Assembly (NCBI GenBank): GCA_964035545.1
Contig: OZ037771.1
Coordinates: 4,993,190 to 5,057,189, forward strand
Direction of reading: 5' to 3'
DNA length: 64,000 nucleotides
DNA from: Bugula neritina
Lineage: Eukaryota; Animalia; Bryozoa
Of the stretch, positions 1,583 to 54,593 are shown one piece after another (the stretch's first letter is position 1; each line of letters begins with the position of its first letter). The notes under the pieces were generated by a model, which worked only from the letters and a program-made list of their open reading frames with translations, was not told the DNA's origin and did no database searches. The position numbers and the translations under genes were made by a program.

Positions 1583-2722
1583 TCAGTCGTGGTCGCCCCG
1601 TTTGAGGAGGGCCACGGAAGCTTTAAGGGTTTTCATCTCGGAGGCGGCTGCGGCAACTCTGGGGGTTAGCCGTTGAATCTCCGCTTCCAAATCGTACATA
1701 CGGAGCTCGACTTCTTTTATATTGCGAGCTGTAGGGGCCTGCCGTTTTGGGGAGGAGGATTTCCATCGTCGTTTAGAAGAGGGCTGCATAGAAGTGGGGG
1801 AAGGGGAACGTCGTTTTTGAGGTATCTCAACTCTGTGAAGTAGGACTCGAGGCAGGGTGGAGGGACGAGGTACAGTTTGTGCTGGAGGAGAGTGAGGTGG
1901 CTTGGTTGGTTTCTTCTGTCTGGGGGGTCTTAGACACGGTCCATGAGTGATGATGCGAGGTGAGGGGAATCCGTGTTTGAGTCGTTCGAAGCGGGGGAGA
2001 TCCTTAATGAAAGGTTTGATCAGATTGAGAAAGGTGGGGAAGTTGTATTTGTCTACATCGTACAAGTGTCCCACATGGCAGTCCATAGTGCGCTGATGGC
2101 TGAGGATGTAGTCCCTGTGGTAACTGTATTCACCACAGGGACAGAGAGTAGTTAGGAAGTGTTGCGGCACGTGGACACGCAAACGGCGATGGGTGGAGAA
2201 GTGCTGCTGACACAGCCTGCAGGTGGTGTATCCGTCATGGCCGCGGTGTAGTTGGATCAGTTTCTCCATCTCTGGTGCGACCCAGCTATGTTGTTTGAGT
2301 AGCACGTCTGGTAGGGATGTAGGAGGTGTCTCACCGTTCTAGGCCAGTTCTAATGGTGGCATATCTCCGTAGTCAGGGCGTCTATAAGAGCAGAATTATT
2401 GTTAGATCGAGTTTGATCTTTACAGCATAATTCTGATGACAATCGACTGTTACTAGTCTGAGAGTCATGCATCTTTTTATACGGCACTCGAGAGACTGTG
2501 TCAGAACGTGTAAACTGACTGAGAGACATAGTATCAAGCTCCAGATCTAATAGATCGTCCGCCATTACTATGTTCTCGTCGTCATTCACGTGTGACTCTG
2601 TCTCCAGTAACTGTGATTCAATCAGATCGATTAAATCAGAGTTGACTGAGGTGAGATCTATTTCAATTAGTGGAGTGTTAGATCTAAGCAAGCTTACCTG
2701 AGAACTCGGTATTTATACTCAT
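1583..2722 (-). pseudogene. ORF3 of element A: spliced zinc-finger/coiled-coil accessory gene, frameshift and stop near 2340-2375
   Basis: Micro-exon 2722-2698 then GTAAG; acceptors end at 2646 and 2382; CRLC...H...H and CPC...H...CH motifs; C-terminal heptad repeat; homologous to copies in B and C. Confidence 0.8.
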
Positions 2723-8094: not shown

Positions 8095-8095
8095 C

Positions 8096-15734: not shown

Positions 15735-15736
15735 GT

Positions 15737-16885
15737 ATGTCTCTAAATACCGAGTTCCTAGGTAAGCCTGCCTAGATCTAGTATTCCTATCTATAGAAAC
15801 AGGTCTGTTACCAGTTAATTCTGAATTAATTAATCTAATTGAGTCAGAGTTACTGGAAACCGTGTCTAATGTGAATGACGACGAGGATAAGTAATGGCCG
15901 ACGATCTTTTAGAACTAGAGCTAGACGCTATCATTCTTAGTCAGTCTACACGTATGAACACGGTTTCTCGGGTGCCTTATAAAAGCATTTGTGACCCTCA
16001 GACTAGTAACAGTCGATCGTCACTAGAATTATGTTGTAAAGGTCAATCTCGATCTAGCAATAATTCTACTCTTTTAGACGACACTCGTTCCCCCACTTCT
16101 CCGGGGATGCCATCTCTAGAGATGGCGTGGGATCCTGAGCTCAAACTACCTACTCAATCCAATTGTACACTGCCGTACGCACTAGAATCCAAGTCGTGCT
16201 GGACGACGCCAGCAACAGAGAAAGAGATCCTTCAATACCGGGGTGACGAGGATAGGACAACATGTCGGCTCTGTCAGCAGCACTTCACAACCCACGACAG
16301 ATTGCGGGTACATCTCCCGCAACACTTTGTTACCACCTTTTGTCCCTGTGAGGAGTTCAGCTACTACAGGGACTACATACTCCATTACCAAAGGACGATG
16401 AACTGTTTTCAGGAGAATTTATATGATGTAGATGAGGCATCCTATCCTGAGTTCTTCAGCCTGATACAGCCTTTCGTTTCCGATCCAGCTCGACTCGAGC
16501 GTCTCTCCCAGGAATTTCTCGCTCCTTGACCCATCACCCCTGGCCCTATCACACAACCCCCCCGGATACCGAAAGCCAAGCGTGAAAAGCTCTCCAACTA
16601 AGCCTATACCCCCACCCAAGTCCCTTCTTCGAGTACTACTACAACGCATCGGAACGAAACCCTACAAACTCTCCTCCTCTCCTCCTACTTCTGTAGACCG
16701 TAAGCGACGGTGGCAACCCTCCTCCTCCCCGCCATTTATCTCTGGCTCGTAACTTGCGGGAAGTGGAGCTCCGGACTAGTGAGCTGGAACGCGAGGTACA
16801 TCGGCTTGCTCCTAGAATCTTAGATGCAGCGAGTGAGTTGCGGTCCCTGAAGGAGTCAATTGCTCAGCTCAAACAGGCTGCTTAA
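15737..16885 (+). pseudogene. ORF3 of element B (zinc finger plus coiled coil), disrupted
   Basis: Micro-exon 15737-15761 then GTAAG; acceptors end at 15814 and 16077; CRLCQQHFTTHDRLRVHLPQH; ends ...LARNLREVELRTSELEREVHRLAPRILDAASELRSLKESIAQLKQAA*. Confidence 0.8.
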
Positions 16886-17040
16886 GAATAGAACTGTGTC
16901 TTCTATCCTGCCCTAAGTAACATTCCGATCTGTGTGACGTTCCCCGTCAGTGGCGCCTCTCTTCTGTGTGACCTATCTCGTCCCCCCCAAGACAATCTGA
17001 TGACTAGTAAGCGGTACAGGAGTATAATCGTATGCACATG

Positions 17041-19617: not shown

Positions 19618-20850
19618 TGGTGTAAATATAGACAATTGCCCACACGGTTCTTTTACATATACATATATCTGTCTTAGATCTGTGGATGTTCTTTATATAT
19701 ATATATGTATATATACAAATTTTGGATCAAATATTTTGCGAGTTTTATTCTATTATATTTTTCTTATGTGTGTATCAAATGTTTTTTTTGTGTAGTACGC
19801 TTCTCCTCCACTATAAATTTTAGCAGGAAGTAGGCTCCCTGCTGGAGGGGGCGGCGTAGTGGCTAGTGAAGCGTACTGATCGTACACGTGCATAATAGCC
19901 AATAATGTTGAAGCACGTGACTACCCCCTGCGGAGCAGAATGCTTCTGGAGGATGATATAGTTAGTTAGTTAGGAGTAGTGCGATGATCGAGATAGTGGA
20001 TTAAAATAGACTGTAAACGCATTGTGAACGTTGGATGTATCTTTCTGTTTTATTTGTATATATATAATTAAATATAGTTCTTTTATCACGTTATCTTCTG
20101 AGTAATCCTTGAAACCATCAACCAAACAAGAGCATAGTTGCACACACAGAATTCACCCTAACTATTATAATTGACAATTATAACAATATTCCTAGTGCAG
20201 AAATTTTGACTCAGGATTGATGGTAACTGCTGCTAGAATTATATGCTTACTAATAAGTAGTAGCCAAAAAGGTTTTAATTGTAGCTAATATACTATCTTT
20301 AGGAGGCAAAAGGTAATTATGTGCTAGCAAACATAATTTTATTATTATATTTATAACTTCAATTTACCTGCAGTTTAAACCAAACTATATAGGCCTAGTC
20401 AATATTGCAGAACAATACCAATAATGTCATTCAAAACATTGAATGCTGGAGTAATTTATAACAGGTGCACTATTTTCTTGAAAATATGTAACACTGGTAT
20501 TGTTGCATATTGCATATATAAAATGTTGTCTTGTCATCAGAATCGGACAATTTTGTTTATATTGACTCAGTTCCTAAAAAAGTCCTTCTATCTAAATATT
20601 AGAGGACCTGTCAACGCCTGCCAACTTTTAAAAAGACTACATTCGTCACCAAACCTGTTGATGATATGCTGAATAAGCTTTGTCTTTGTTTGTAAAGGTT
20701 TATACTTTATACTATGTTATTCGTGTTATTAATAATAGTCAGTTTGTGCTTTTAGATTGATCCAGAGTGGACCTTTAATATCTTGAGCAATAAACTATCT
20801 TAAACTCTTTGACCGGTCTCTGAATCTATAAAGCAAACATAGCATAAACA

Positions 20851-20867
20851 TGGTGCCCCGAGTGAGG
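20851..20867 (+). promoter_or_regulatory. Primer-binding site, elongator tRNA-Met type (element D)
   Basis: TGGTGCCCCGAGTGAGG, about one mismatch from the complement of the elongator tRNA-Met 3' end. Confidence 0.7.
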
Positions 20868-20960
20868 ACTTGAAGAAACTAAAAGTAAAAGTGTTTGCTG
20901 GAAAGAGAGACAACAAACAATACAACTAAATCAAAAACAACAAAAAATCACAATATCAAG

Positions 20961-23900
20961 ATGAGTATCAGTGTTGACTTTTTAGCCCCCAAGCCTATTC
21001 AAGATGGCTCTGACTTGTCCAACCAGTGGACGAGATTTAAAGAAAAATTTGAGCTATTCCTCACAGCAGCTGAGAAAGAAAATTCTAATGATAAAGTCAA
21101 AGTAGCCATTATGTTAAGATGCATAGGCCCAAGAGGCAACGACATATTCAAAACATTTACTTTCTCAGATGGTAAATCAAAAGAAGTCTATGCTGATGTT
21201 GTGGAGAAGTTTGATGCTTTTTGTCAACGAGGCACTAATAAAGTAGTAAAAAGACATCAACTGTTATCAACCAAGCAGAATACCATGAACATTGATGAAT
21301 ATGTTACTTCGCTTCACAAAATCGCTCGAGAGTGTCAACTGGACACAATGTATGACGATTTCATGCTTCAAGCTTTACTCCTGGGCATCAACGATGCCCA
21401 ACTAAGAAGGAAGCTATTTGATGATGCCAGCGGGGATACTGGCTTAGGACTAGAAGAAGCTATAAAGAAATGTCGTATTGCTGAGAATTCAAGGAATGAC
21501 ATGGCTGCAATCCAGTCTGAAGAATCAGTGCAGTTCATCGGTTCCAGAAAGAAACCTAATAAGCCAAGCAAAGATGATGATGATAATGCAGTAAGGTCCA
21601 CTCGAACAGGAAACTTCTCAAAAGGAAGTTGTGGCAACTGTGGGCAGTCTCACCCTCCCAGAAAGTGTCCTGCATACGGTCACCAGTGACATAACTGCAA
21701 AAAGTATAACCATTGGAAATCTCAATGTCGCTCAAAAAAGCAAGTAAACATGGTAGAAAAAGACAGTGATGGCTCAAGTGAATTGTTGTTGAGCGTACAG
21801 GTAGTCAGAAAGAACAAAAAGTTGATGACAACTATAAGAGCCAGTGTGAATGATAGTCACAAACCGACACAGTTTCAGATTGACACAGGAGCATCCTGTA
21901 ACATTCTCGATCACAAAGATTTTGTTGATCTCGGTAAGCCAAAGCTTGACAACAACCAGACAAGGCTAAAGCAGTTGGATGGTTCTATCACTCGAGCATT
22001 AGGAGGATGCGAACTGGAAGTAGCTGGAGAGAAGCTGTATTTTCTGGTGCACAAGACACGAAATCACAGCCTTCTATCTGGTGAGGCCGCTCTTCAGCTC
22101 GGCTTGATAACCATCAAAGAGGAGTGGGTTAACCTAGTAAGCAATGCCAGCCTAGATGACATTCTCGGAAGCTACCCAGAGGTTTTTGAAGGTATTGGAT
22201 ATTTGCCTGGGGAATACCATATTGAAATAGATGATAGGGCTATCCCAAGACAAAGTCACAACAGAAAGACGCCTCTCTCGATGGTAGCTGATCTCAAACA
22301 AAAATTGCAGTCATACACCCAGAAAGGTATCTTAAGTCCAGTAGACTATCCAACAGCTTGGATAAACAATCATGTGGCTGTGAGAAAACCCAATGGCACA
22401 CTGAGAGTATGTTTAGACTCAAGCAACCTAAACCAAGTGATTCAAAGAAATCATTTTCCAATGCCGACGCTGGACGATGTGCTTAGCGAGCTGGATGGTG
22501 CTCGAGTATTCTCATTGTGTGATGCCAAGGACGGCTTTTTGCAGATAAAACTCAGCAAAAAGTCCAGTGATTTAACTACGTTCTGGACGCCATTTGGCAA
22601 ATACAAATGGCTGAGGATGCCTTTTGGGTTGTCCTCAAGTCCTGAAGAGTTCCAGAGGAGACTCTCAGATGCACTTAGCGGTCTCGACGGAGTAACTGTA
22701 GTAGCAGACGACATCCTAATTTATGGGAAAGGAGCTACTCAAGCGGAAGCAGTGCAAGACCATAACCAAAAGCTCGAAAAACTTTTAGCAAGAGCACGTA
22801 GGGTTAATCTCAAGCTAAACAAAGAAAAATGTAAGTTTCTTCTAGAAGAGCTACCTTATATTGGTCATTTGATAACAAAAGATGGAGTGAAGCCCGATCC
22901 TAATAAAATCCGAGCCATAACGGACATGAAGCCCCCTGTCAACAGTGAAGAAATACAGAGGTTTCTTGGTCATGTGAACTGCCTATCAAAGTTCATACCT
23001 CACTGCTCTGCTGAATGTGAACCACTAAGACGGCTGATTGGTGTAAGCAAGAAAGAGTTTGTCTGGGGCCAAGATCAAAAGAGAGCGTTTGAGGAGAATA
23101 AAAAACTCATCACGAAAACTTCTTCACTCAAATACTTCAACATGAACCAACCAGTAGTTGTACAGACTGATGCAAGTCTAGAAGGGCTCGGAGCTGTACT
23201 TTGACAAGAGGGGCAACCAGTAAGCTATGGCTCTAGAAGTTTGACAGATAGTGAGAAAAACTATGCACCTATTGAACTAGAACTTCTGGCCATCGTCTAT
23301 GGGATGCAGAAATACGATCAGTACGTTTTTGGAAACCCATATGTAACTGTACACACGGATCACCACTCTTTATAGAAACAATATTTAAGAAGCCTCCGAA
23401 CAAAGCGCCTAAACGCCTGCAATCAATGCTATTGGCTCTGCAAAGATACCAAATTAAAGTGCACTACAAACCTGGTTCTGAACAAGTTACAGCAGACATG
23501 CTGTCTCGCGCTCCTGTTGGTGAACCCCAGAACAATACATCAGAAGAACAGATTTTCACAGTTATTCAATTGAAGTCATTTATGTCTGACCTAAGCGAAA
23601 CGGGTCTGAAGCAAGACCTGTCAGTGTCAGAAGTGACCTATAAACTGATCCAACAGCATACGGGTAATGATCCAGTAATGGTGCAGCTGCAATCTCTGAT
23701 AACCTCAGGATGGCCTAACAAATTATTTCAACTGCCAGAAGAGGTGAAGCCGTACTATTCATACAAAGATGAACTTGCAGTACTAGATGGGATTATTTAT
23801 AAAGGATCTAGACTGGTTGTGCCCATAGCTGCCAGAGGTGAAATACTCAACAAGCTTCACACTAGCCATCAAGGAACAGCTGCCACTATCAGAAGAGCTC

Positions 23901-24946
23901 GCAATGCGGTATTCTGGCCTCAAATGGCTGAGGACATTCGAATGAAAACTGACAAGTGTGTCACATGTGCAATGGATGCACCTTTACAACAGCATGAGTC
24001 TCTGCAAAACCATGACATACCAGACTTACCTTGGAGTAAAGTAGGCATGGACATACTAACCTATAAGCATAAGGATTATTTGATGCTGGTAGATTATTAC
24101 TCTGACTTCTTTGAATATGAACCTTTATCTGATACACAATCTAGAGCAGTAATCAAGGCTTGCAAGAAAACTTTCGCAAGGTATGGGATCCCTCACCAGC
24201 TTCAATCAGACAATGGACCACAATTCACCTCGGCCGACTTTGCTCGATTTAGCACTGAATGGGGTTTCAGCCATACAACCTCATCTCCGGGACATCAGCA
24301 GTCGAATGGGAAGGCAGAAGTAGCAGTTAAAATAATCAAAGGGCTGATGAAGAGAGCAGAAGACCCATATTTGGCTCTGCTAGAGTATCGAAATACCCCG
24401 ACTGCAGGGATGACCTCATCACCAGCTCAGAAGATGTTTGGGCATTCCACGAGGTCTATTCTTCCTACAGGTGACATGCCAAAGAACAATGTCTTACAGC
24501 AAAAAGCTAACAAGAGAAAAGTGGTACAGAGCAGCTACAATAAATCAGCTAAAGATTTGACAAAGTTGGCTATTGGCTCGCCAGTGCTGCTGAGAGATTT
24601 TGTGTCACAAAAGACTAGATGGCAGCAGGGCAGAGTGGTTGAACAGCTGTCGGACCGATCATACCTTGTCTCAAACAAAGACACAGACATGGCTGTGAGG
24701 CGAAACAGGGCCAATTTGCGCCCTCTGAGTGATGTGGGAGCTAGTCAGCCATTGACTACAGTTGAAATACCAACAAACGCCAATGACCCAGTATCCAGTC
24801 ATTCTGTTCCAGACGCACAGATTCAATCAGCCGCAACAGCAATTCCTACAGAAGTGAATACAAACCCTGGTCCAGCCCCAGTTAGATGGCAACGATCAAG
24901 ACAAACAAAAACCCCAGCTAAATATGAACAATACGAACTATACTAG
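20961..24946 (+). pseudogene. Single gag-pol ORF of element D with two stops and a frameshift
   Basis: Double Zn knuckle (stop 21687-21689 inside the second); IDTGA protease; VADD RT; TDAS RNase H; HHCC and SDNGPQF integrase. Confidence 0.93.
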
Positions 24947-25513
24947 ATAATTATACTTAATCTGAACGAAGGCAATCGGACAATAAACTCTTGAAAAAAA
25001 AATCATTTAAATAGCCCGAACCCAGAAAATAATATAATGTACTTTAAATTAACAAGGGAGACAATCTTGTAATAACATGCTAATCTGCTATAGACTATTA
25101 ATAACAAAATCGTATTACTTGTTCATGTATCAATTCTTAATTTTTTGTTAAGTTTTTTTCATTTGTTTGTTCAACTGTGGTGGCTCGTAGAGCTACCAGC
25201 AACACAATACGCAAGGTTGCGTATTGACCCGGAACGATGTACTAGCCAATTAGCTAAGCTGCTTATGAGTAATAGTAGCAGCTTCGCGCTACTAGCTCAG
25301 TTGAGGATAGTGCTGTAAATTAAATAGACGTGCGTATTATTAACTGTTGTATATTAGATTTTATTATGTATTCTTGTATTCAAATATAACGATATCTACT
25401 CGACTTATCTCGGTGAAGTTCCTCTAATAATAAATGACTCTCTTGGTTGCACATCGACCCTAAATCTGAAAATCAGAACAGTGGTGGCAGCGGTGGGATA
25501 GTGTTCATCAAAG

Positions 25514-28500
25514 ATGGAGACTGAAAATGCTAGAATGCAACCACCCCCAGTAGAAGGTGAACGTAGAAATGATGTTAACCCTGTAAATCGTGAGGGAGAA
25601 GAAGCTTATAGATATTGCTTGAAAGCTCCCACCTTTACTGGGTCAGAAGATGTCGAACAGTTTATACAAGAATTTAGAGAGGTAATGGAGATTTCTCAAT
25701 GGTCGCACAGAGTGGCCCTTATCCAATTGCGGAGAGCGTTGACGGAGCAAGCCAAGCCGTACGGAGTGGGAACGGACGTAAACGGGATACTGGCTGCGCT
25801 GCGGGCCCGTTTTGGCATCTCCGAAATAGACGCTAGGACCAAGCTACAGAGATTGTGCCGCACCCCGCGGACCTCGCTGCAAGAACATGCCGCGACGGTG
25901 AAGAAGCTGGCACAGATTGCGTATAGTGACCTACCAGCGCAACACCAAGAGCGTTACACATACGACGCCTTTGTCCAGTCACTAAACGACCTGGGCCTAC
26001 ACCATCAACTTCGAGCTAAAGGGATAACCAGAATAGAGGATGCCCTGAAGGCTGGAGAAGCTTACCTGTTGGCTACCCAAATGCATCGAGCACAACGGAA
26101 CCCACCAGCAGTTGGAGTCAGTGCTGCCAGGGCTATGACAGGCCCCGAAGCCCCCCCGCTGGAAGCCGAAGTGGACCGTATGGTAGAGATGCTGGGACAA
26201 CTGGTAACAATTCTGGCCGGCGCTGGCCCCGGTCAGGCCCTGCGGGTGCCTCCAACACCTGTGGGGCAGGGCTGGAGTAGTGCTGGTCAGGACCATAGAC
26301 AGAAAGGACGACCCCAATACCAGGGGGCGTTAAACTGTCACGGCCCGCAGACGATCTCCCTCGGGCCGCAACTGAAGGAGTCTGGTGGGACACGCCGTCG
26401 TCTGTCCGTACGGACACGACGGAACACTCCTCCCGAGTGGCAGGTACCACGCAGGACTAGTAGGCCCGCACAACGGCCAAGTACCTTCTCCCTGCCACTC
26501 GCCAATTGGTTCCACCGGTTACCTCGGGAAGGGGAGCCCGCCACTGAAATGGAGCCGGAAGGCCCAGTGGAGAGCCCCAAACCCCGCCGGCACCAACCTC
26601 GCCGCCGGAAACCCCGTAAACCACGGGTGAAACCCCCGCCGTCCTACCAATCTAGGACAGCACATGCGGGGGGAGGGGGGGTGAAAGTACAACCACATGG
26701 AGAGAGCTATTTCCTACCCGGAAAGGTGGCCGGCAACGCCGTCACTTTCCTGCTCGACTCCGGTTGTACTACCAACCTTCTCAGTCGTAGAGTCTTTGAG
26801 GCACTGCCCCGCCGGGACAGGGATAGAGTACGACCGTATACGGGGGAGCATGGCACCCTGGCAGACGGGTCATGTATTCCCTTCTACGGTATTATCGAGC
26901 TCCCTGGGCGTGTCCGAGACCAGGCTGTACAGGAGACTTTTGTCATAAGCCAACTGGAGGAAGATGCTATCCTCGGAATGCCCTTCTTGAAGCAACACCA
27001 GTGCCGAATAGACTTCAGCAAGTCGGTGGTGCTGATGGGCGGGCGAGAACTCGCCTGTGTGGATAAGTTTGGGCGTCCTCTGGTGGACGGTGTTCAGGTA
27101 GTCCAAAACTGCACCGTGCCCGGACGCTCCAGAGCTACTATCCACTGCCGAGTGAACAGCAACCGGATAGCCAGGCTCGGGGTCGTTGAAGGCGCGCACG
27201 AAAGGATCCAACTCGCTAGTAGTTTAAACCGACTAACTGAGCGAGGGGAGGTCTTAGTGCAGTGTGTCAACCCCTTTACCGAGCCCATTGAGCTCCCAGC
27301 TGGGTCAATGCTGGGCCGGTTCCACTCCGTCCAGGAAGAGGACGTGGGCCCGTCGCTGGGTGACGCGACGGAGACACTCCCTCGACACCCTACTCAGGGG
27401 CGAGGGGCAGTCCCAACACATCTCCGGGAGTTATATGAAACAGCCTGTGGCGGCTGCGCGAGCAACAAGGAACGCCAAGCGATGGCGAAGTTGCTACGCG
27501 ACTACGGTGATGTGTTCAGCAGCGGAGATCATGACATGGGGCTGACGGGAGTGGTCAGACACGAAATACCGCTGACTGCAGGGACAGTCCCTGTCCGGCA
27601 ACCCAGGCTGGGGCCGGAAAAAGAAAAGGAGGTTAGCCGACAAGTACGGGTACTTCTGGACCGCGGCCTCATAGAGCCCGCCCATAGTGCGTGGAGCTCA
27701 CGAGTCGTACTGGTCCGGAAGAAAGACGGCAGTTGGCGGTTCTGTGTGGATTACCGCAAACTCAATAACGTAACCATACAGGACGCCTACCCTCTACCTC
27801 GTATTGACGAGTCATTGGACGCCCTAGCCGGCAGCAAGTACTTCAGTACGTTAGACTTGCTAAGCGGCTATTGGCAGGTTCCTCTGAGTCCCGACGCCCA
27901 GGAGAAAGCGGCGTTTATTACACGGGACGGGTTGTGGAAGTGGAAGGTGCTGCCCTTCGGGTTAACCTCCGCTCCAGCCACCTTCCAGAGGCTGATGGAG
28001 CAAGTCCTTAGCGGGCTCCATTGGAAGACACTGCTGGTCTACCTTGATGATGTCATCGTGATCTCCCCAGACTTCGAGACACATGTCAGTCGTCTGCAGG
28101 AGGTTTTCGAGAGACTCCGAGGTGCCGGTCTTAAGCTCAAACCTTCCAAGTGCGCTCTATTGCAGCCGGAGGTCAAGTACCTGGAGCACGTTGTCGGTCG
28201 AAACGGCGTGGCAACGGATCCCGAAAAGGTATGGGCGGTAGAAGACTGGGTCACCCCCCAAGACTTGACCGGACTCCGGGCTTTCTTGGGGCTGGTAGGG
28301 TATTACAGGCAATACATACCGGACTTTGCGGACATAGCCCAGCCGTTAAACCGGCTCACCGCAAAGGGAGTGACGTGGCAGTGGACCCCAGTCGAACAAG
28401 GAGCGTTCGACCGCCTCAAGGACTGCCTGCTAACGGCGCCCATCTTGGCCTACCCAGACCCCACTCTGGAGTACATCCTCGACACGGACGCCAGTGACCA

Positions 28501-30727
28501 AAATGTTGGCGCTGTGCTGTCTCAAGTGCAGGAAGGCCGAGAGGTAGTGGTAGCCTACTACAGCAAGTCTCTCTCACCCGCTGAACGAAATTACTGCACT
28601 ACCCGCAAGGAGCTGCTGGCAGTAATCAAGTCAGTGAAGCACTTCAGACCATACTTATACGGCAGGAAGTTCCGGCTGCGTACGGATCATGCCTCGCTGA
28701 TCTGGTTGTGCAAGAGAGCAGAGCCCTCCAGTCAGGTCGCCCGGTGGCTCGAAATCCTAGCTGAATTATCCTACCGGATCGAACATCGACCGGGCAGAAG
28801 ACACAGCAATGCGGATGGTTTGAGCCGCCGACCTGATGGAGGTTGCAAACAGTGTCTCAACATCGAGAGGAGGGACGGAGGTCCCCCGCGATGTGAGTTA
28901 GAGACGCTGGCTCGCCATGGAGCACCGTTTGACTAGGACCAGGGTCAACTCAGACAGGAGGTTGACGAGTCCCCGGAGGTTGTACAAAACCTCCGCGCCA
29001 ACCCTGTACTGGCCGAAAATGTTCGAGAGCTGAAGAAGCTCCAGGAAGAGCTACCTGGAGTAGTGGCAGACATATATCGGGCCAAAAAGGAAGGGCGACG
29101 ACCCAGCGAGGAACGCATAAGACAGGGATGCGCCAAGTTCCGGCTATACTGTCAGCGTTGGGACTCGCTGCGGATCGGGCAGGATGGGTTACTAACCATC
29201 TCTCTAGCCGCCAGCGGCAGACACCCAGAGAGGAAGAGGGTAGTCTGCCCCACTGCCATCCGCCGTGAGTTGATTTGGGATACTCACAAACAGGCCCACG
29301 CAGGGGTCAAGAGAGTGATGTCCAAATTACGACTCCGGTGGTATTGGCCACAAATGGAGCGTGACGTCCGGCTAAGAGTCAAACAGTGTGAGATCTGCCA
29401 GGCCAGTAAGCATAGCCGTCCCCCTGGTGAAGCAGGACGGCGGAGGTTATATGCTGGAAGGCCCTGGCAAGTAGTCGCTGTAGACCTGGTCGGACCCATG
29501 CCCCTGACCCCCAGAGGCAATAGTTGGATTTTAGTACTGACCGACCACTTTACTAGGTGGGCGGATGCTCTGGCTATCCCAGATGCGTCAGCCCCAACAG
29601 TGGCCAGGGCACTAGACCAACATGTATTCTGTTATTTTGGTCTCCCCGAACAGATACACTCTGATCAAGGCGCTCAGTTCCAGTCCCAACTGATGAGCGA
29701 CCTTTGCCACCTCTGGGGAGTAAATCAGAGCCGGACCACCCCCTACCACCCTCAAGGTAACGGGGTGGTGGAGCGCAACAACCGGATGCTAGGTGATGCG
29801 CTCCGGAGTCTCCTCCTTGGACGAGGCCAAGAGGAATGGGATACGGTGTTGCCGCAAGTCATGCGTGCATACCGTAGCACCCCACACACCAGTACTGGTG
29901 AGACCCCAAACCTCTTGATGCTCGGGAGAGAGACTCGTGTCCCTGACCATCTTACCTACCACGTTCCAGAGCAAGACAACTCGGTTCACGAGTATGCCAG
30001 TGAACTAGTGGAACGGATGAAGGCCGTACACGATATACTGCGCGAACAGCAATGGAAGGTGCGGCACGAAGATTCCGATGAACCACCCCTCTACCAAACG
30101 GGAGATAAGGTGTGGATGGTCAATTACTGTAGGCGTCGCGGACAGGCGGCTAAGTTACAGCCTAAGTTCGTGGGACCCTACGTGATCATCGAGGCTATGC
30201 CCAACCATACGTACAAGATTGAGCGCTCAGGACAGGTGTCTATCCAGAATGAGTCTCGCTTGAAACCGTATTGGGCTAGTCCCGACGCAGTGGGAGAAGC
30301 CCCCCCGTTGTTGGAGCCCAGGAGGCAGACAACAACTCGCGGGCGACGGCGGCATGGACCTGAATACGAAGTGGTCATACCGCGGGAAGAAAACTTGGTG
30401 AGAGAGGAGCGACAGCTTTTGCCAGCAGAAGCGTGTCCGCCACCGCCAAGTCTAATTCCATCACTTCCAGAAACCGAGCCGGTTCCGGAAGTGCAAACCC
30501 CCACGGAGGGAGGGGCTCCATCCGGAGAACAAGAAGAGGTGACCGCTAACGGTGAAGTAGAGATGCCATTAGAGGCCCCTACAAATAAACCGGCGAGCGT
30601 GTCACCCCCCCTAGAACGGGGACAGCGTACGAGGAAACCCCCACCATATTTAAAAGACTTTGTATGTGACTGCATTAGAAGCGGCACGCATGAAAGTCTA
30701 GGGGAAAACCGTACGATAAAATGTTAG
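25514..30727 (+). pseudogene. gag-pol polyprotein of C, one frame with one in-frame TAG (28934-28936)
   Basis: LLDSG, YLDD, DTDAS, HHCC, DDE and GPY motifs; the stop corresponds to a Trp in A. Confidence 0.95.
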
Positions 30728-30910
30728 AGTTGTGAACCCCACGCAAATATCAACTTTTGCGAGGGCGGAATAGTGGGAGGAATTAATGCGCGTAAAGCAA
30801 ATAGTTCCGACTTCGTGCCTCAGAAACAATGCTCAGCCTTTTCTTATGCTGACATCGCCAGAGGCAGACGTATATCACAACCAGCTCCAATCTTACCAAG
30901 AACGTTGAGT

Positions 30911-32040
30911 ATGGACATTAATACCGAGTTCACAGGTAAGCCAGTATAAGTCTTGTATTCCTATCCATGGAAACGGGCTCTATGCCAGTAAATTCTGAAC
31001 TAATTCAACAGGTTGAATCAGAATTACTGGGAACCACGTTTCACGTGAATGACGATGAAGACACTGTAATGGCCGACGGTCTGTTAGACCTGGAGCTAGA
31101 CACTGTTCTTGGTCAGTCCACACATGATTCACTGGTTCCTCGAGTGCATTCTAAAAGTTGTGACTCTCAGGCTAGTAACAGTCGACCGTCACTAGAATTA
31201 TGTTGTAAAGATCCACCGCGATCTAACAATAATTCTACTTTTGTAGACACACTCGCGCCCGTCTCTCCGGGCATGCCTTCTCTAGAGATGGCATGGGACC
31301 CAGAGCCGGCCCCACCAACTTCCACAACCGGACAACTGCCACCCCAGTTGGAAGCAACCTCCAACTGGACTACCCCTGCCACAGAGAAAGAGATTAAGAC
31401 TCATAGAGGAGATGACAGTAACCGTGAATGCCGCCTATGTCAGCAGCGGTTTACAACCCATCGCAGGCTGAGAGTCCACTTGCCGCAGCATTACATCACA
31501 ACGTTCTGCCCCTGCGGAGAATATAGTTATAATTGTGATTATCTACTGCGTCACCAACGCACTATGCAGTGCTTTCAAGGACACGTCTATGAAGTAGACA
31601 AAGCATCATATCCCGCATTCCTTAACGCCATCAGACCCCTCATCACTGACTCGGCTCGGCTGTCTCGCCTCGAGCAAGGCTTTCCCTCCCCTCGACCCAT
31701 CATCTCTGAAACTATGGATAAGCCTACAAAATCAGCTAACTCCCCACCTCTCAGTCCTATACGTCAACCGCATACACTTCCCCGTGTCGTACTACAGAGG
31801 GTAGACACGAAGGCGTATACACTCCCTCCCCCACTTCCATCTTCAGAATGAAAAAGGCACAGACAGCAGACCTTCTCTCGTTCATCCCCTCTGGCCCGCA
31901 ACTTACGTGAAGTAGAAGCTAGGGCACGCGACCTGGAGCAAGAAGTGTATAGACTGGCCCCGCGCGTGCATGCGGCATCCAGTGAACTCAAGTATCTACA
32001 GGAGTCTATTAAACGCATGAGGCGGGCGGCCCATGATTAA
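30911..32040 (+). CDS. ORF3 of element C: acidic, zinc-finger, basic and coiled-coil protein with one premature TGA at 31849-31851
   Basis: Micro-exon 30911-30935; donor GT 30936; acceptors end at 30988 and 31246; frame continues past the stop to ...LQESIKRMRRAAHD*, matching A. Confidence 0.82.
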
Positions 32041-32678
32041 CATGAGTCCATCTCCAACTCCATACTACTCTTCCCCCCCTACCTCTCTGTGGCATTCCCT
32101 CCCGTTACGGTGGCACGTACTCTACATGTAAATAGGACTTTCTTTTACATACTTGCATCATTCATTGTGCATATATTTTTTATATATATACCTGTACCTC
32201 TAATCAGTTGGCTCTTGTATATACTTTTGTATCGTTCTCTCTCTGCCCACTGATGTATAAGTTTTTTTATATGAATTATATTTTTTATCAGAAAGAGGGC
32301 TTTCTGCTGGAGGGGACAGTGTGGTGGCTCGTAGAGCTACCAGCAACACAATACGCAAGGTTGCGTATTGACCCGGAACGATGTACTAGCCAATTAGCTA
32401 AGCTGCTTATGAGTAATAGTAGCAGCTTCGCGCTACTAGCTCAGTTGAGGATAGTGCTGTAAATTAAATAGACGTGCGTATTATTAACTGTTGTATATTA
32501 GATTTTATTATGTATTCTTGTATTCAAATATAACGATATCTACTCGACTTATCTCGGTGAAGTTCCTCTAATTATAAATGACTCTCTTGGTTGCACATCG
32601 ACCCTAAATCTGAAAATCATAACACAACATTGTCAAAGATTTGTAAAGGGGATGTTGATGATATGCTGAATAAGCTTT

Positions 32679-33297
32679 ACTTGACTTACTTGACTTACTT
32701 GAAGATGCAATCACGTTAGACCACTATATTAGTGTAAGCGACGTGCCTCGTTTGGTGAACAGAATTATTAAATGTAGTTAATACTTTTATCGCATAAGTG
32801 CAGTTCTGTTTTAAGACTTTGGTGCCAGTACAGGGCCTTATGAGTCCTGTCTGTGAGCAGCATTTGATGTTATTTTCATATCACGTATTGTTCTGGGTAG
32901 GAAGCTGGCATGAAATAGTGAGGTGTTAGTTCTAAAAGTGGTGGGCATGCCATTTGACTGGGACCTGGTGGTAGCTGATGTAGTGGGCTGATCGATGAGG
33001 TGTTCATACGACTTTGAGAGTGAAGGATGATATTCCTCTTTGGCCAGGATCCGCATCAAGAGACTAAGTCGTAGGTCTTTGCGCCTGTTTTGCAGGGGGG
33101 TTAATCCAAGCCTAGATCTTGCCTCATCTGAGCCAACCCTGCCTTTAATACCTGCCACAAATCTCACAGCCTGCTCTTGTACTTGCTCAATATCTACTAC
33201 AGCCTTCTTGGAGCTGGGGTCCCACACAGCAGCAGCATATTCTAGGTGAGGACGACACAGGGCTTTGTATGCTATTAACTTCGCCTTTTCTGGTGCC
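32679..33297 (-). mobile_element. 5'-truncated LINE (CR1/L2-group-like 3' end) inside the 3' LTR of D
   Basis: RPHLEYAAAVWDP...IEQVQ...SFLPRTIRD C-terminus; (AAGTCAAGT)n tail; LTR sequence resumes on both sides. Confidence 0.85.
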
Positions 33298-33729
33298 CTT
33301 TGTTTGTAAAGGTTTATACTTTATACTATGTTATTCGTGTTATTTTTATTAGTCAGTTTGTGCTTTTAGATCTATCCAGAGTGGACCTTTAATATCTTGA
33401 GCAATAAACAATCTTAAATTCTTTGACCGGTCTATGAATCTATAAAGCAAACATAGCATAAACAAAACCCATTTGAGCCGTCGCTAACCTGTTTCCTGTT
33501 ATTGTAAGCATTTTCCGGCAGTCCTTGAAATCAGGTCAGTAAGTAAAAAGAGGAAAGGCTTGCATTTTGGATGAGGAAGCTACTTCAGCTGTCCCACCGC
33601 TATACTAACCACAATTCAAACCAAAATGTTACTACAAAACTGAAGAACTAACAAGATTTGTCAAGTGTAAATGTAAGTGTCATACATTGCAGTTTTATCT
33701 CGAAGAAAAGTATTGACTTTCAGTTTCAC

Positions 33730-35474: not shown

Positions 35475-36035
35475 GTCCGTATACATTATTAGTTAGTCTG
35501 GAGAATAGTAAAATACACACCTGAATACAGTGTTCTTTAAATATACCTGAATAGGTTTCAATTACGTCTTCCAACTTGAAAGATAACATGAAGACTTTGT
35601 TACCCCCCTTTAGGTTTCTTCTCTGAACTGTTATAATGTGGTATTTCTGTATACACCGTAACTTTCTGTAACTTTTATCTGCATGTAGTTTAATGGAGCT
35701 GTCTACTTACCAAAGCTGTTGAGAAACTTCTAGGTTACATGAGAACCTAGGTTACTTCTCATTCTCACCATTTCTTATACATGCTAATATTTTCTTCATA
35801 TTAACAGTTTCTGTTATAAAGTGGGTGTGAAATCTTAAATAGAAGCATCACCGTTGTCTAATAGATAAGTTACTCATATGTTTTCAGTCTACCTGATATA
35901 AAGAGTTGAAGAAAGTCTCAGTTTTATTCCTATTGAATCTTCATGTTGATGACTCAATAATTAGTATGTTTGTCTCTTTGAATATAAGAATATATTAACT
36001 GCTGGATTACATTTTCAATTATTATATAAGTAATA

Positions 36036-39000
36036 GAGGGTTTTCAGACATCCCTCTAAGGGGATTTGTATTTTAAAGTTGTCTCCCCCTACAGGGATTG
36101 GGGGCAGTCTCGATGATATATAGAAAACCCATAAAATAAGTAGAGATGTAAGGTTTGAGTGAAGACTACTACTAGTATAAGTTTCATTTTTTCTGAGATT
36201 AATATTTTGGCATAAGTACACATATGAGCAGTTTTAGAAATTTTTTAAAAAATTTTGTTAATGATAAATAGCACAAAAACAAAACTTCAAAGCATATTTG
36301 TGGTTTTGGTTATTGAGCAAATCTGAAGCTGGCAGCTGTCATTATTATTTGCTTTGCTGACTGTAACCAGTCTGTTTAGAGCTGCTAACCTTTCAACTCT
36401 TAGAACAATAATAACATGCTTGTACACTATATAGCTGCACTAGTAAACTCTGTCTTACTGAACTCCAAATGCTCCAAATTATGGGTTGGAACACATGCCT
36501 GTACGTTTAAGAAGGCACTGGTTCATTTGTATTAACATGTTCACGTACTATACTATACTATGAAAATAACTCCTAAAAGTTTACCATCTGAAAATATTAC
36601 ACTAACTGAAGATAAGAAAATAGCAAACAGTTTTAATAAATACTTTACTTCCATAGGAACAACGTTATCAAAGAAATTTACTGACGACAATTTTGATTTT
36701 ACAGCTCGGAAGTCAGATAAAAAACTTGATGAACAGTTTAGCTTTACAAATATTGAAAGCACAGTCATTGAAAGCTTACTTAAAGATGTAAACCCAGCCA
36801 AAGCTGCAGAATTAGATTTAGCTCCCACCAACCTAATAAAAATATCTGCATCTCATCTTTTAAAGCCTTTAGCTTACATTATAAACACAATTATCAATGA
36901 TGGCGCTTTTCCAAATGAACTAAAAAAAGCTAAAGTTGTTCCTCTACACAAAAAGGCATAGCTACTGATGTAAGTAATTACCGCCCAATCTCTATATTAC
37001 CTGCTTTCAGTAAGATAGCTGAAAAGATTTTAAATAAGCAAATAGTAGATTTTCTAAAAAGCAAAAATTATTTAACTGATAAGCAGTACGGCTTTAGACG
37101 AAATAAAAACACAAATATTGCCTTAATTAATCTAACAACTAAGGTTTTAAATGCCATGAACAATGGTAATTCTGTAGCTGAAATTTTCCTCGATTTTAGT
37201 AAAGCCTTTGACACAATAAATCATGAAATCTTATTAGCTAAATTAAAAATGCTCCACTTTTCAAGTCACAGTGTGAAGTTAATTAAAAATTATCTGTCCA
37301 ATCGTCAACAGTCTACTATTATTAACAACACATATTCTGACTTTATTCATATCACATGTGGAGTACTACAAGGATCCATACTTGGTCCCACATTATTCCT
37401 AATTTATATAAATGATCTTCCAGATGTAACTATGCATTTAGACCCTATATTATTTGCCGACGATACGAACCTCTTCTTTAAATCAAAAAATCTATTAAAC
37501 AATATGGACATCATAAACTGTGAATTAAAGAAAATTGAAACTTGGTGCAATAAAAATAAATTAACTGTAAACATGAGTAAAACAAACTATATGATAATCA
37601 AAACAGCGCAAAATAAACAATATTTAAATTGCTTTGCCTTAGAAATGTTCAACAAAAAATTAGTGGAGGTAAAATCAACCACCTTCTTAGGTATTATAAT
37701 AGATTCACATCTTTCTTGGCAACAACATTGCAGCAAACTTTGTCAAAACCTAAGGCCCTTAGTAGGCTTGATAAGTAAATGTTCCCATCACCTACCTAAA
37801 AAAATTCTAATACAAATATATAACTCTTTTGTAAATTCTAAATCAACATATTGCCTAGAATCGTGGGGTAATGCAGCAAACATTTACTTTGAACCATTAC
37901 ATTTACTACAAAAAAAATACTGAAAATTATATATAAAAAGCATCACCTTTCCGCATCTAAACCACTGTTTCTTAGTTCTTCAATCATGCCTATTCACACT
38001 CTACACAAATTCAAACTAATACTGCTCTCACATAAACTTTACTATTCTCAACTAACACATCTCACACATAACTATCCCACAATATTTTCAGAGTTCAGCC
38101 TACAAACTCCTCCATCATCAACTGCTGCAGGTCAACGAAGAGTGAAATTCCAATGTTCATCGCTATGGAATAAATTGCCTAATTCTATTCGTGCTGTGGA
38201 AAGGGAGGCTGGTTTCAAACTTGCCCTGAGAGACCACCTAATGACAAATTTCCAGATAAAAAAATAATACTCTTTGAGTTGCTAAAAAACTTTCCAAAAA
38301 CCTAAACAAAAATCTTTTATAACTGTCAACCATTCATGGTTCGGTGCCTCGACTAGCTACAGTGCTATTGCGCCATAGGCCCTGTCATTTTGTTTATTTT
38401 TTCTCAATTAATTTTTTCCCCGACTACGACAAAATGAAAACAAACAAACTAAGTACCCTATTATCTAATATTTCTATATATAAAAAAAATTATTATGAAT
38501 ACAAGAATATGTATTATAAAATAAATAGATTAAATTTGTAATTTCAAACATCTTATCTAAAAATGCCAAACACTGTATAGCTATATATATGTTTTATAAG
38601 CATTTGTTTACATGGCATGTCTGCAAGTCAATAAAAATATTTAGAGAATAATAAAAAGAAGCATATACATTTCAGAACAGTTTCTGTTGAATTGTGGGAC
38701 ATTTCCAAAATATTCATCTCAGAAACTATTCTGAAATTTATATGCTTCTTTTTACTGTTCTCTAAATATTTTCATTGACTTGCAGACATGCCATGTAAAC
38801 AAATGCTTATAAAACATAAATATAGCTATACAGTGTTTGGCATTTTTAGATAAGATGTTGTTTGAATTTACAAATTTAATCTATCTATTTTAATACATAT
38901 CTTTATATTTATAATGATTTTTTTGATATATAGAAATTTAGATAGTAGGGTGGCTTAGTTATTTTCATAGTATAGGTGTGTAAGTACGTGAACATGTTGA

Positions 39001-39495
39001 TACAAATGAACCAGTGCCTTCTTAAACGTACAGGCATGTGTTCCAACCCATAATTTGGAGCATTTGAAGTTCAGTAAGACAGAGCCCACTAGTGCAGCTA
39101 TATAGTGTACAAGCATGTTATTATTGTCTAAGAGTTGAAAGGTTAGCAGCTCTAAACAGACTGGTTACAGTCAGCAAAGCAAATAATAATGACAGCTGCC
39201 AGCTTCAGATTTGCTCAATAACCAAAACCACAAATATGCTTTGAAGTTTTGTTTTTGTGCCATATATCATTAACAAAATTTTTTAAAAAATTTCTGAAAC
39301 TGCTCATATGTGTACTTATGCCAAAATATTAATCTCAGAAAAAATGAAACTTACACTAGTAGTAGTCTTCACTCAAACCTTACATTTATACTTATTTTAT
39401 GGGCCTTCTATATATCATCGAGACTGCCCCCAATCCCTGTAGGGGGAGACAACTTTAAAATACAAATTCCCCTAGAGGGATGTCTGAAACCCCTT
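36036..39495. mobile_element. Foldback (long-TIR) non-autonomous DNA element interrupted by a LINE
   Basis: 36036-36571 plus 38451-38686 is the reverse complement of 38720-39495 (arms about 775 bp, spacer about 33 bp). Confidence 0.85.
36572..38446 (+). mobile_element. 5'-truncated LINE (L2/Crack/Daphne-like RT), degenerate
   Basis: NYRPIS, FLDFSKAFDTINH, QGSILGP and FADD motifs; (AAAC)n tail; possible AACT duplication. Confidence 0.88.
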
Positions 39496-39612
39496 TATTC
39501 AACAGTAAATTGATGTAATTTATACTCTTAGAATATTAACATAGATAAATGTACTAGAAAGCAGGTGATATTATATTTACTCTATAATTGCGTACGTATA
39601 TACTAAAAATAG

Positions 39613-40958: not shown

Positions 40959-41006
<48 letters not shown>
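40959..41006. repeat. (TA)n microsatellite, left flank of the PLE
   Basis: Pure TA run. Confidence 0.95.
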
Positions 41007-41012
<6 letters not shown>

Positions 41013-41040
41013 GAAATAAAATGAGATTTGATTAATATAA

Positions 41041-41103
41041 TGGCATTTATTACTAGTAGTTTCGTACACAAGAACGATGTGCACTCGTCAGATAAATTAG
41101 CCA
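41041..41103 (-). ncRNA. Minimal type I hammerhead ribozyme in the PLE 3' repeat
   Basis: Reverse complement of the 43275-43337 copy; core intact. Confidence 0.85.
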
Positions 41104-43274
41104 CTATGATTGTTTACAACTATAAATAATGTAATATGTAAATATACACAGATTAAAGCTAGAAGATCAAAATATAACAAAAAGGTAGCATTGTAATTAG
41201 TTGGCTATGTTACAGCATTCTTGAGTAGAAATTTACTACTATGTCTGCATATGGATAAAAAGTCATAGCGCTTATTGAGGGAAGACAACTGTGGCTTATA
41301 AAGAATGAAAAATTTTTCCCATGAGCATAGCTGACAGATTTTAGTGTTGTTGTTGTATGGTTAAGTTTTTCTGAGAATTTTCCAGGATATGGTAAAATCC
41401 AGACCTTTGTCTTTTAAGGTCCAGATGTGTTTACTCAACTCAGTTTGCATGCACTTGGTTGGGTGTCTGAAAGAAGCAAGGTGGTTGTAGTATCTTGCCT
41501 TGAATGCAGTGGAGGAAATTCCTACATATGTTTCAGCAGTATCTTTTGATGGGACGAATACTTTGGCCTGGTACACAATGTTTGGGGTGGTGCATTCTCC
41601 TGGGAGCGGGCATGTCTTTACATTTCTACAGTTACAGCCTGCCTGTGATATAGGGGTGGTGTTGCATTTAGTAACACTTCTGTTGTGAGCAGTGATGGTC
41701 TGCTCTAAATTTGGGCAGCAACTGTAGCTGAGTTTGAGTGTGTTTTTATTAAATATTTTGTGCAGTGGGTGTTTGGTGTTGAATATATCTTTTATCAGCT
41801 TGAGGTATATGGAGCCGATTTTCGTCTTTACATTGCGGCTATAAGGTGGATTGTACCAGATGACTTGTCTTTGTCTGATGGGTTTGATGCTTGTATTGGT
41901 GTTGTCAGTATAGTCTTTGTATTTGAGTTGGTAGTCATATCCGCTTTTAGCCAAAGCATCTTGATATAGTGGGATGGCATTGTTGAAGATAGTTTCATTG
42001 GTAGATATGTCACAAAGTCTGCGGTTTATAGATTCTGGTATGTTATTCAGTATGCTGGGAGGATGGTTAGAGTCTTTGTGTACATACAGAGGGATGTTGT
42101 TGGGCTTGGAGTACGGTGTATGATGTTTCTTGACCAGATCTAGGGTGGTGTCTAAATAGTCAGTTGTTTTGATATTAACATCTATGGTGATCTTTAGACC
42201 GTGTGACTGGAATAATATGCAAAGATCTTTTTTCAGTCTTTCAGCTAGTTGTGGTTTAAGATCTGTTACACCTAGCCCATCGTCTCTATATAGTCCAATG
42301 TTAGCTTTGAACTTTTTTGAGATTTTACTTAACAAAAATAATCCTACTAATTCACATGTTTCAGCACCATCATGTGAGCCCATAGTGACGTCAAACAAAT
42401 TATCTGATTGTCTTTTACCCCAAAATGAGTTGTCATGCACCAATATGGATTTTTTTGTGTGCAATATGATATTCCGTTCGTGGTTGCTGACTGTAGTATG
42501 CAAGTTGGCAAAGTCGAGGGCATCAGATAGTAGCTTTGGCGATATAGATGGATAAAATTCCACAATATCGAACACGATAAAAGAGTGCCTGTTTGTGGTG
42601 GTCAAATTGTCAAACCAATGTAAAACTGCAGATGTGCTTTTCCACTGATTTAGGCCAAGTTTGCTGTTTATCGATGTATTAATTCTGTCAAGTAGTTGTT
42701 TACTCACCCTACCTATCTCTGGTTTGGTGGGGTTAATAAGGCGGCAGGTGGGGTTAGTTATGTAGTTAGCCTTATGATCCTTGATAGTAATGAAGGCGGG
42801 TTTCTTAGCTGTTATAGTAATTCTGTCATCAAGTTCCAATTGTTCAGCCATGGCTTTGTCCTCACTAGTGATGTTGGAGACTTTGTCATTTGATATTTTC
42901 TTATAGGTTTTAGTGATATTGTTAGTTAAGAGTCTGTCATACGATTCTTTGTCCATTTTGTAGAAATTGTTGCTTTTGTCTGCAGGCACTATTATATTGT
43001 CGCTCATGGTTATTTTATGCTTGATGTCGGAGGATAGCTTGTCTTGAAAGGTATTGTGGACATGTCTAAACTTAACAGATCGGATCATGTCAGCTAATCC
43101 TTGCTCGAAACTTTGCATAGCTGTGATCTGTGGTGGGGACTTTTTAGACCTACTCAAGAATGCTGTAACATAGCCAACTAATTACAATGCTACCTTTTTG
43201 TTATATTCTGATCTTCTAGCTTTAATCTGTGTATATTTACATATTACATTATTTATAGTTGTAAACAATCATAG

Positions 43275-43337
43275 TGGCTAATTTATCTGACGAGTGCACA
43301 TCGTTCTTGTGTACGAAACTACTAGTAATAAATGCCA
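43275..43337 (+). ncRNA. Minimal type I hammerhead ribozyme, inverted copy
   Basis: Stem I ATTTAT/ATAAAT plus TGGC/GCCA; CTGACGA; stem II GTGCACA/TGTGTAC; GAAA; short stem III CTA-C-TAG; GTA cleavage triplet. Confidence 0.88.
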
Positions 43338-43432
43338 TTATATTAATCAAATCTCATTTTATTTCTTCTAATGTTTACGCTCTAGATTTATTTCTATAGA
43401 GCACTCTAGTAACGTTTTATAAACACTCATTT

Positions 43433-46151: not shown

Positions 46152-46289
46152 TCTCTCTCAACTCACACATCTACACACATTAGTTGTGTCTCGTAATAAG
46201 TTAGGAACATTACCTGAGGTGATACCAAAGATGAAGTCACTTACAGAGTTACATCTACAGTTCTGTGACTTACATACATTACCAGACAG
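46152..46289 (+). CDS. LRR exon 1 (138 nt, two 23-aa LRRs)
   Basis: AG|...|GTGAG, phase 2-2; LSQLTHLHTLVVSRNKLGTLPEVIPKMKSLTELHLQFCDLHTLPD. Confidence 0.92.
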
Positions 46290-47323: not shown

Positions 47324-47461
47324 TCTCTCTCAACTCACACATCTACACAAATTAGATGTGTCTGGTAATAAGTTAGGAACATTACCTGAGGTGATACCAA
47401 AGATGGAGTCACTTACAGAGTTACATCTAAAGGACTGTGACTTACATACATTACCAGATAG
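47324..47461 (+). CDS. LRR exon 2
   Basis: Same structure; KLDVSGN and ELHLKDC. Confidence 0.92.
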
Positions 47462-54590: not shown

Positions 54591-54593
54591 TAA

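Follow-up and report, generated by a model that had tools for sequence, protein, structure and literature searches.

A non-env third gene of Gypsy elements in Bugula neritina encodes a predicted two-finger protein and contains predicted RNA hairpins

According to comparative sequence analyses, three related Gypsy elements of the bryozoan Bugula neritina possess a third gene between pol and the polypurine tract (PPT), and this gene is a real, non-env accessory gene under purifying selection. Its predicted product combines two zinc fingers with a coiled coil. Tentatively, we assume that this protein is made from a likely spliced message, likely binds a double hairpin located within its own reading frame, and would thereby control the splicing or export of the unspliced genomic RNA (gRNA), like HIV-1 Rev and the CERV protein of the C. 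elegans element Cer1.

The window, which is the whole stretch of DNA analyzed here (positions 1-64,000; 64,000 nucleotides), is a pile-up of mobile elements that includes three related Gypsy insertions, A, B, and C. As the first-pass annotation had stated, these are separate insertions, each with its own LTRs, 4-bp target duplication, and primer-binding site (PBS), and all three carry a same-sense gene between pol and the PPT.

About 977-8376, minus strand: element A, with TG..CA LTRs, target duplication ATAT, PBS, and PPT
About 9196-20185, plus strand: element B, with TG..CA LTRs, target duplication ATAT, PBS, and PPT
25176-32624, plus strand: element C, with TG..CA LTRs, target duplication CAAC, PBS, and PPT
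25172-25175 and 32625-32628: target duplication CAAC of element C
25176..25480, plus strand: 5' LTR of element C
25482..25499, plus strand: PBS of element C, tRNA-Leu type
25514..30727, plus strand: gag-pol of element C (PR-RT-RNaseH-IN), broken between 28936 and 29318
32290..32319, plus strand: purine-rich stretch and PPT of element C
32320..32624, plus strand: 3' LTR of element C

TG..CA LTRs, a tRNA PBS, a PPT, and a target duplication characterize Ty3/Gypsy elements, as does the domain order PR-RT-RNaseH-IN, which was found by Pfam matches in elements C and A. The PBS 12-mer of these elements is given as Leu type in a published supplement (PMC13524379). The two LTRs of each element are highly similar (259/263 identical positions or 98.5% in A, 317/329 or 96.4% in B, and 303/305 or 99.3% in C), and an empty site of C exists, as one contig of sequencing run X2 spans the insertion point. 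ATAT accounts for two of the three target duplications, hinting at an insertion preference. In the pol frame, the spacer that follows pol (30728-30910) shows weak conservation (dN/dS 0.46-0.50, with wide intervals), and it contains a conserved pyrimidine tract and an acceptor-like AG at 30867; the pol of B runs through this spacer, and those of A and C stop at differing places.

Element C itself sits inside a second Gypsy-type element (20684-33464), just past the pol of the latter, which we take to be Mag-like and whose 167-bp LTRs (20684-20850 and 33298-33464) are 95% identical. Between the third gene and the PPT of B, an AT-rich stretch of about 2.5 kb (17041-19617), whose ends are inverted and match imperfectly (72% over 133 bp), is probably a non-autonomous DNA element. 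Elsewhere in the window, a Polinton/adintovirus-like cluster (53988-62691) comprises a double-jelly-roll capsid gene (54936-55790; Pfam PF21738) and ORFs presumably resembling a protein-primed DNA polymerase (59677-62691). A 585-codon ORF on the minus strand (41006-43372), by our assumption a Penelope-like RT, lies between 223-bp inverted copies that are 99.6% identical; 544-bp inverted repeats (96%) at 36032-39499 enclose a 255-codon RT fragment (37156-37923), presumably of LINE type; and 45950-50170 consists of units of about 1.16 kb in tandem, which are 67-95% similar.

The third gene and its parts have the following positions.

30911..30949, plus strand: conserved ATG opening 12 codons in the pol frame; the GTAAG at 30936 (15762 in B, 2697 in A) resembles a donor
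30967..32040, plus strand: third gene of element C (357 codons), interrupted by a single in-frame stop at 31849
30994..31101, plus strand: acidic/leucine segment under protein-level selection, with an NES-like or acidic-activator-like motif at codons 35-44
31330..31710, plus strand: predicted two-finger core (C2H2 and C2HC, packed with further helices)
31852..32037, plus strand: basic patch and predicted coiled coil, 3' of the stop in C
15737..16885, plus strand: third gene of element B, carrying frameshifts plus a stop at 16527; hairpins in 15991-16068
1583..2722, minus strand: third gene of element A, whose frame is open over 2269-1583 and frameshifted 5' of this; hairpins around 2468-2391

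The start had originally been placed at the ATG at 30911 (15737 in B, 2722 in A) and needs correction: this codon is kept in A, B, and C and opens the 12-codon ORF in the pol frame, which differs from the finger-coding frame (30967-32040). None of the three copies in the window is intact (0/3), and the stop at 31849 in C precedes the basic patch and the coiled coil. Unlike these copies, full-length open relatives exist: 73 homologues of the C protein, all unnamed, were found among 2942 candidates, and 11 of them (P0002-P0012) have 355-383 amino acids (aa) and cover 99-100% of the query.

Selection on the gene was estimated by pairwise codon comparison. The resulting dN/dS is 0.21 between C and A (bootstrap 0.11-0.31, 326 codons) and 0.19 between C and B (bootstrap 0.12-0.27, 346 codons), values that are rough because dS is close to saturation and that nevertheless are far from the neutral value of 1. 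For PR-RT-RH, the C-A and C-B comparisons yielded 0.10 and 0.15, and gag yielded 0.34 and 0.14. Of five control frames, four lay at 1.0-2.2; the remaining one, an antisense frame that uses the same third positions, came out at 0.44 and 0.32, in line with expectation.

All protein motifs listed in the first-pass annotation could be located: an acidic stretch, a C2H2 finger (C-x2-C-x12-H-x3-H), a second, CPC-type motif (C-x-C-x12-H-x5-C), a Pro/Ser linker, a basic patch, and a heptad helix. The eight ligands were checked in 72 aligned homologues; of the rows with a residue at the respective position, 70/71, 68/71, 67/70, 69/70, 69/70, 68/72, 64/68, and 65/65 retain the ligand. The view that the ligands are conserved while the linkers diverge thus holds for the ligands, but codons ~46-100 are conserved as nucleotides. 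Finger 1 has the classical spacing C-x2-C-x3-F-x5-L-x2-H-x3-H and is recognized by Pfam zf-C2H2_4 in 28 of the 72 members, under the cut-off of this family; finger 2, joined by a five-residue linker, has neither two-His ligands nor a TGEKP-type linker. AlphaFold2 confidently models residues 121-240 of a naturally intact homologue as the core and residues 316-364 as a long helix at the C-terminus, and it predicts disorder in the remainder; the core of ~120 residues modeled alone reaches pLDDT 92 and pTM 0.82. Prediction of a two-copy complex, with the alignment unused, scored 0.08. By a crude score, a heptad-like tail is present in 14 of 28 long distant members against 58 of 560 shuffled sequences. 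Of the 49 rows spanning codons 35-44, 34 show the NES-like pattern and 15 lack it, and no such pattern was found in the sister clade; an acidic activation motif is an equally good reading.

That the protein is not Env, as had been proposed from its lack of a signal peptide and transmembrane segment, was corroborated: no transmembrane segment was found in 20 of 20 sequences (maximum 19-residue hydropathy 0.96), no env family is among the 25 Pfam families listed for the 72 members, and the model, one 120-residue finger domain plus one long helix, lacks a fusogen ectodomain. The expectation that extra ORFs of Gypsy elements are usually env-like was too strong, since CERV (PMC10309623) and the ORF3s of bdelloid rotifers (PMC5408684) are non-env.

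The first-pass annotation had read the protein as a transactivator or anti-silencing factor. Of this reading, the analyses support a selected non-env accessory gene that has the anatomy of a finger plus coiled-coil protein and might act on DNA or on silencing. The embedded hairpins and splice-site motifs described below favor a role at the RNA level at least as much. As a DNA-binding transcription regulator of the element (transactivator, insulator, or anti-silencing factor), with the hairpins as a separate cis signal for host proteins, the protein would have a function that we consider possible but rather unlikely, and this reading ranks close behind that of an RNA regulator. An acidic N-terminus together with a coiled coil is a usual layout of activators. 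The best sequence matches are SALL3/4 fingers (E 1e-4), and both near clades retain D and R at positions +2 and +6, respectively, of finger 2. Core residues 30-81 superpose on finger pairs with rmsd 2.4-3.4 and weak Z (3.2-3.4), the top structural neighbors being mostly DNA-bound tandem fingers such as those of Kaiso (5vmu; Z 3.4, rmsd 3.2, 58 aligned) and SALL4 (7y3k; Z 3.3, rmsd 2.7, 51 aligned). However, a Z of about 3 is background, and the PDB is rich in DNA-bound fingers; Foldseek gave no match at E<=0.001 against PDB and BFVD, and VIA-align matched the whole model to generic coiled coils only and the core to nothing at Z>=5. Moreover, the LTRs of the three elements can hardly be aligned and have no 8-mer in common, although common 6-mers are somewhat enriched (34 versus 18 expected), whereas the finger helices are conserved well beyond the LTRs. 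The helix of finger 1 has basic residues at positions 1, 2, 3, and 5 in 58 of the 59 distant members that could be anchored, with R at +3 in 40/58, and finger 2 reads S-R-D/E. Because the helices are fixed while the LTRs share no 8-mer, a target of fixed shape fits better than a fast-changing LTR motif.

A factor that contacts proteins, for instance to counter a host silencing or restriction factor, and that binds no specific nucleic acid, is quite improbable in our estimation. The fingers are predicted to be packed with extra helices in one compact domain (pTM 0.82), unlike free finger arrays, and annotated bryozoan proteins have the domain as well, some of them twice; the conserved Arg/Lys residues on both helices, by contrast, suit a polyanion.

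The candidate RNA partner lies in the third gene itself. In codons 46-100 the synonymous difference is 0.27 and 0.12 versus 0.49-0.90 elsewhere in the gene, and the protein is unconstrained there; third positions in 31150-31239 differ at 0.07, compared to 0.38-0.77 in windows lying entirely inside the acidic region, core, or tail. Two adjoining hairpins are predicted in this block.

31160..31192, plus strand: predicted RNA hairpin 1, 11 pairs (RNAalifold)
31193..31237, plus strand: predicted RNA hairpin 2, 17 pairs (RNAalifold), abutting hairpin 1

Pairing is possible in 84 of 84 cells in A, B, and C, including two two-sided and three G-U changes; in a shuffle test of the three DNA rows, 52 of 500 shuffles did as well, which is not significant. 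Paired bases at codon positions 1 and 2 can also be read from proteins, 63 of 134 of which span the block. One base pair of hairpin 1 is standard in all 58 decidable rows (43 A-U, 13 G-C, 1 U-A, 1 G-U), and on a quick tree of sequence outside the block its G-C state requires three changes, two of them forced. A second pair is C-G in 52 rows, U-A in six, U-G in one, and mismatched in three, and a third is A-U in 53, G-U in eight, and G-C in two; mismatches at two pairs amount to 3/62 and 3/63 rows. By strength of association, the above pair of hairpin 1 comes 54th among 4186 column pairs, a score of 1.0 is reached by many pairs that are unrelated, and protein-level association is inflated because relatives share many changes. 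As the association is not unique, the evidence for the hairpins is the direction of the changes and not a p-value. Hand-mapped variants of run X2 fall on 6 of 22 unpaired versus 4 of 56 paired places (p 0.026). Folding z-scores of the sense strand are modest (-1.8 to -2.4), with the antisense equal or better in two of three copies. Across the lineage, one-sided changes at ten pairs comprise 19 G-U versus 10 A-C cells in rows that are not independent, and this G-U excess on the sense strand favors a sense RNA.

Judged by these substitution patterns, a structured RNA element of about 80 nt, with predicted hairpins, is conserved in the RNA of the element. It may be limited to one clade, since the sister clade differs in the block. 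Rfam gave nothing at gathering score in the window, with one chance match at E 0.58, and besides those in A, B, and C no hairpin copies occur in the window. An overlapping peptide in the +1 frame of the conserved block (synonymous fraction 0.41) was rejected: two other frames have similar values (0.38 and 0.42), B and C contain a stop, and base pairing can account for these changes as well. Ahead of hairpin 1, a TATA-like hexamer is a candidate internal promoter.

Motifs that could produce a third-gene message by splicing are present in all three elements.

25555..25562, plus strand: candidate donor AG/GTRA, phase 1, early in gag (predicted; homologous sites at 9622 in B and 8012 in A)
30986..30988, plus strand: phase-1 YAG, a candidate acceptor common to A, B, and C

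The phase-1 AG/GTRA lies 10-14 codons into gag in 3/3 elements; it is the sole such site in the 1140 gag-pol codons of C, and one occurs by chance in the 944-codon pol fragment of A. A second acceptor 12 nt upstream of 30986..30988 is found in A and B only. Conservation extends to GTAAG at 30936, to GTCAGT at 31112, and to the acceptor-like sites ending at 30988 and 31246, and all donor- and acceptor-like motifs are in phase 1 in their own frames (phases derived from the sequence). The 3' arm of hairpin 2 contains a branch-point-like motif ahead of the acceptor-like TAG ending at 31246. In RNA run X1, 22 low-depth contigs, which do not amount to evidence of transcription, are scattered over C with zero cover over 30880-31269, and no joint over 30880-31269 was seen in X1, which is uncovered there, or in X2. 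From these motifs, we infer splicing of the third-gene message.

The donor at 30936 stands directly before the stop of the pol frame, in the same phase as the acceptors. This would also suit a C-terminal extension of Pol/integrase, directly fused in some clades and joined via a short intron here, that tethers integration or aids nuclear entry. We regard such an extension as improbable. In the sister clade, P0111 and P0117 carry an integrase-tail motif in frame with the fingers, and in two ENA proteins, P0251 (1145 aa) and P0266 (1208 aa), the finger domain is joined to a related Gypsy protease with 39% identity to that of C. Neither of these two gave an RT or integrase match, so P0251 looks like a deletion product; possibly they represent a non-autonomous element that retains the third gene. 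In addition, a weak search for fusions of 640-2000 aa found none among 7989 scored candidates, stops separate the integrase tail from the gene in A and C, and most intact relatives start at a Met of their own near codon 1, though gene callers choose such starts.

The third-gene protein belongs to a large family. An alignment search yielded 122 homologues and exposed a sister clade with a core identity of about 41-48%, and a full profile search retrieved 309 clusters at E<=0.001 (132 at 1e-10), 150 of which were listed. Among 28 clusters looked up, the named homologues are bryozoan only. Locus scans of viral and metagenome contigs revealed no third-gene loci, and an RT query against the viral contigs gave no matches. 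In ESM Atlas, the nearest entries to a Bugula homologue are unnamed clusters at 0.90-0.91, followed by ZNF800-type C2H2 proteins, with no structural match. The nearest named proteins are 31-41% identical to C in the core.

XP_067940964.1 and XP_067944745.1 (Watersipora subatra): uncharacterised annotated gene models with the two-finger core
KAF6040922.1 and KAF6040923.1 (Bugula neritina): uncharacterised annotated gene models with the two-finger core

Like the element protein, these have the two-finger core and in some cases a coiled-coil-like C-terminal tail; unlike it, they are annotated as cellular gene models, and some contain the domain twice. P0221, P0268, P0272, and P0137 are Watersipora and Bugula proteins with the domain. 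The locus tags of two of the Bugula domain genes are consecutive, and an N-terminal stretch is, by eye, common to P0221 and P0268, suggesting that the domain proteins of Watersipora and Bugula could be cellular orthologues. An unrooted FastTree phylogeny was based on 107 of the 188 core domains found, most near-clade rows being omitted, and on 116 columns. Element-linked rows, with linkage of homologues judged from Pol parts in the protein itself, fall on both sides of this tree. Bryozoan proteins with names, or members of their clusters, contribute nine rows that lie among the rest, and 91 of the 107 rows are without known context. With its 116 columns, no root, and these context-less rows, the tree gives no order of capture and domestication.

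These relationships bear on whether the third gene is a recently captured or neutrally decaying host fragment. All three copies in the window are broken, and the domain is common to annotated bryozoan proteins. On the other hand, dN/dS is about 0.2 with near-saturated dS, the named proteins are merely 31-41% identical in the core, and element-linked members occur on both sides of the family tree. A "recent" capture and a "neutral" decay are refuted by selection, divergence, and tree placement, and we consider this explanation barely credible. An ancient host capture may still underlie the third gene.

For the RNA regulator that we tentatively prefer, the following course of events can be proposed. 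A spliced message would give rise to a nuclear, oligomerizing finger protein. The hairpins are contained in 31112-31246 (45 codons), a stretch that full splicing would remove, so that the fully spliced message would lack the hairpins and could leave the nucleus freely. The protein translated from it would then license hairpin-containing RNAs. As the hairpins would cover an acceptor, binding of the protein might decide between splicing and export of the gRNA. Nuclear location, oligomerization, hairpin binding, and export are functions that we infer for this protein, and its tie to the hairpins is drawn from their location only.

CERV of Cer1 appears to be the closest precedent for such a function among animal Gypsy elements. 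It is made from a spliced message that shares gag exons and is needed for gRNA export. Its 517 aa comprise H, M, and G-protein-like domains as well as a possible C4 finger; candidate features include an NLS, an NES, a leucine zipper, a Cys-rich finger, and a proline-directed phosphosite, and it has no obvious homology outside nematodes according to the paper (PMC10309623). Both are non-env accessory proteins of animal Gypsy elements. Unlike CERV, the third-gene protein has about 360 aa and is predicted to form a single globular domain with the C2H2 and C2HC fingers, next to a helix, a comparison made by description only. The three structured domains, including the G-protein-like one, that define the CERV family do not appear in the predicted model. 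Hairpins are predicted in the present element, whereas the accessible text on CERV names no RNA element (PMC10309623).

In HIV-1, the RRE is positioned within a 3' coding frame, and Rev is not known to have a zinc finger. The Rev/RRE pair (PMC10309623; PMC7264820) resembles the present one in combining a small, basic, oligomerizing protein (here predicted, and having an NES-like motif in part of the family) with an RNA element in a 3' coding frame. As in HIV-1, a conserved structured RNA appears to be contained in the gRNA, given the synonymous suppression and the pair-preserving changes. Unlike the RRE, the RNA element measures about 80 nt and lies within the frame of its own putative regulator.

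Extra non-Env ORFs between pol and the 3' LTR are also known from other LTR retrotransposons. Those of bdelloid rotifers (ORF3s) are typically expressed from spliced messages and encode GDSL esterases, DEDDy nucleases, and transmembrane or coiled-coil proteins (PMC5408684), and the additional ORFs of plants and fungi include Grande gene23 and Boty, some plant products being nuclear (PMC7264820). Unlike the third gene, these are esterases, nucleases, transmembrane, coiled-coil, or antisense genes. The term "zinc finger" occurs zero times in the rotifer paper (PMC5408684) and "zinc" zero times in the plant review (PMC7264820), and the consulted passages of PMC13269885 and PMC8220671 hold nothing on the present family. 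In the full-text literature searched (outside subscription papers, bioRxiv supplements, Repbase, Dfam, and GyDB), no described retroelement ORF matched, and no account of the family or of the hairpins came up. Non-env third ORFs in Gypsy elements were already known; new, relative to this literature, are the two-finger family with its embedded hairpins and the splice-site motifs.

In its furthest-reaching form, which we consider doubtful, the proposal would mean that an old and widespread invertebrate Gypsy lineage independently evolved a full Rev/RRE-type circuit, in which a two-finger protein reads a double hairpin in its own frame, masks an acceptor, and gates gRNA export, and that bryozoan hosts made copies of the finger domain into cellular genes. 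Export of intron-containing gRNA is known for few envelope-less LTR retrotransposons, CERV being the animal Gypsy example found, and the family described here would be a second, probably unrelated candidate, with a small foldable domain and an 80-nt RNA element, delimited through its compensatory changes, that are both testable. Even if the protein should be a DNA-binding regulator, it would represent an unnamed zinc-finger family of hundreds of clusters that belongs to one retrotransposon lineage and is shared with annotated bryozoan genes.
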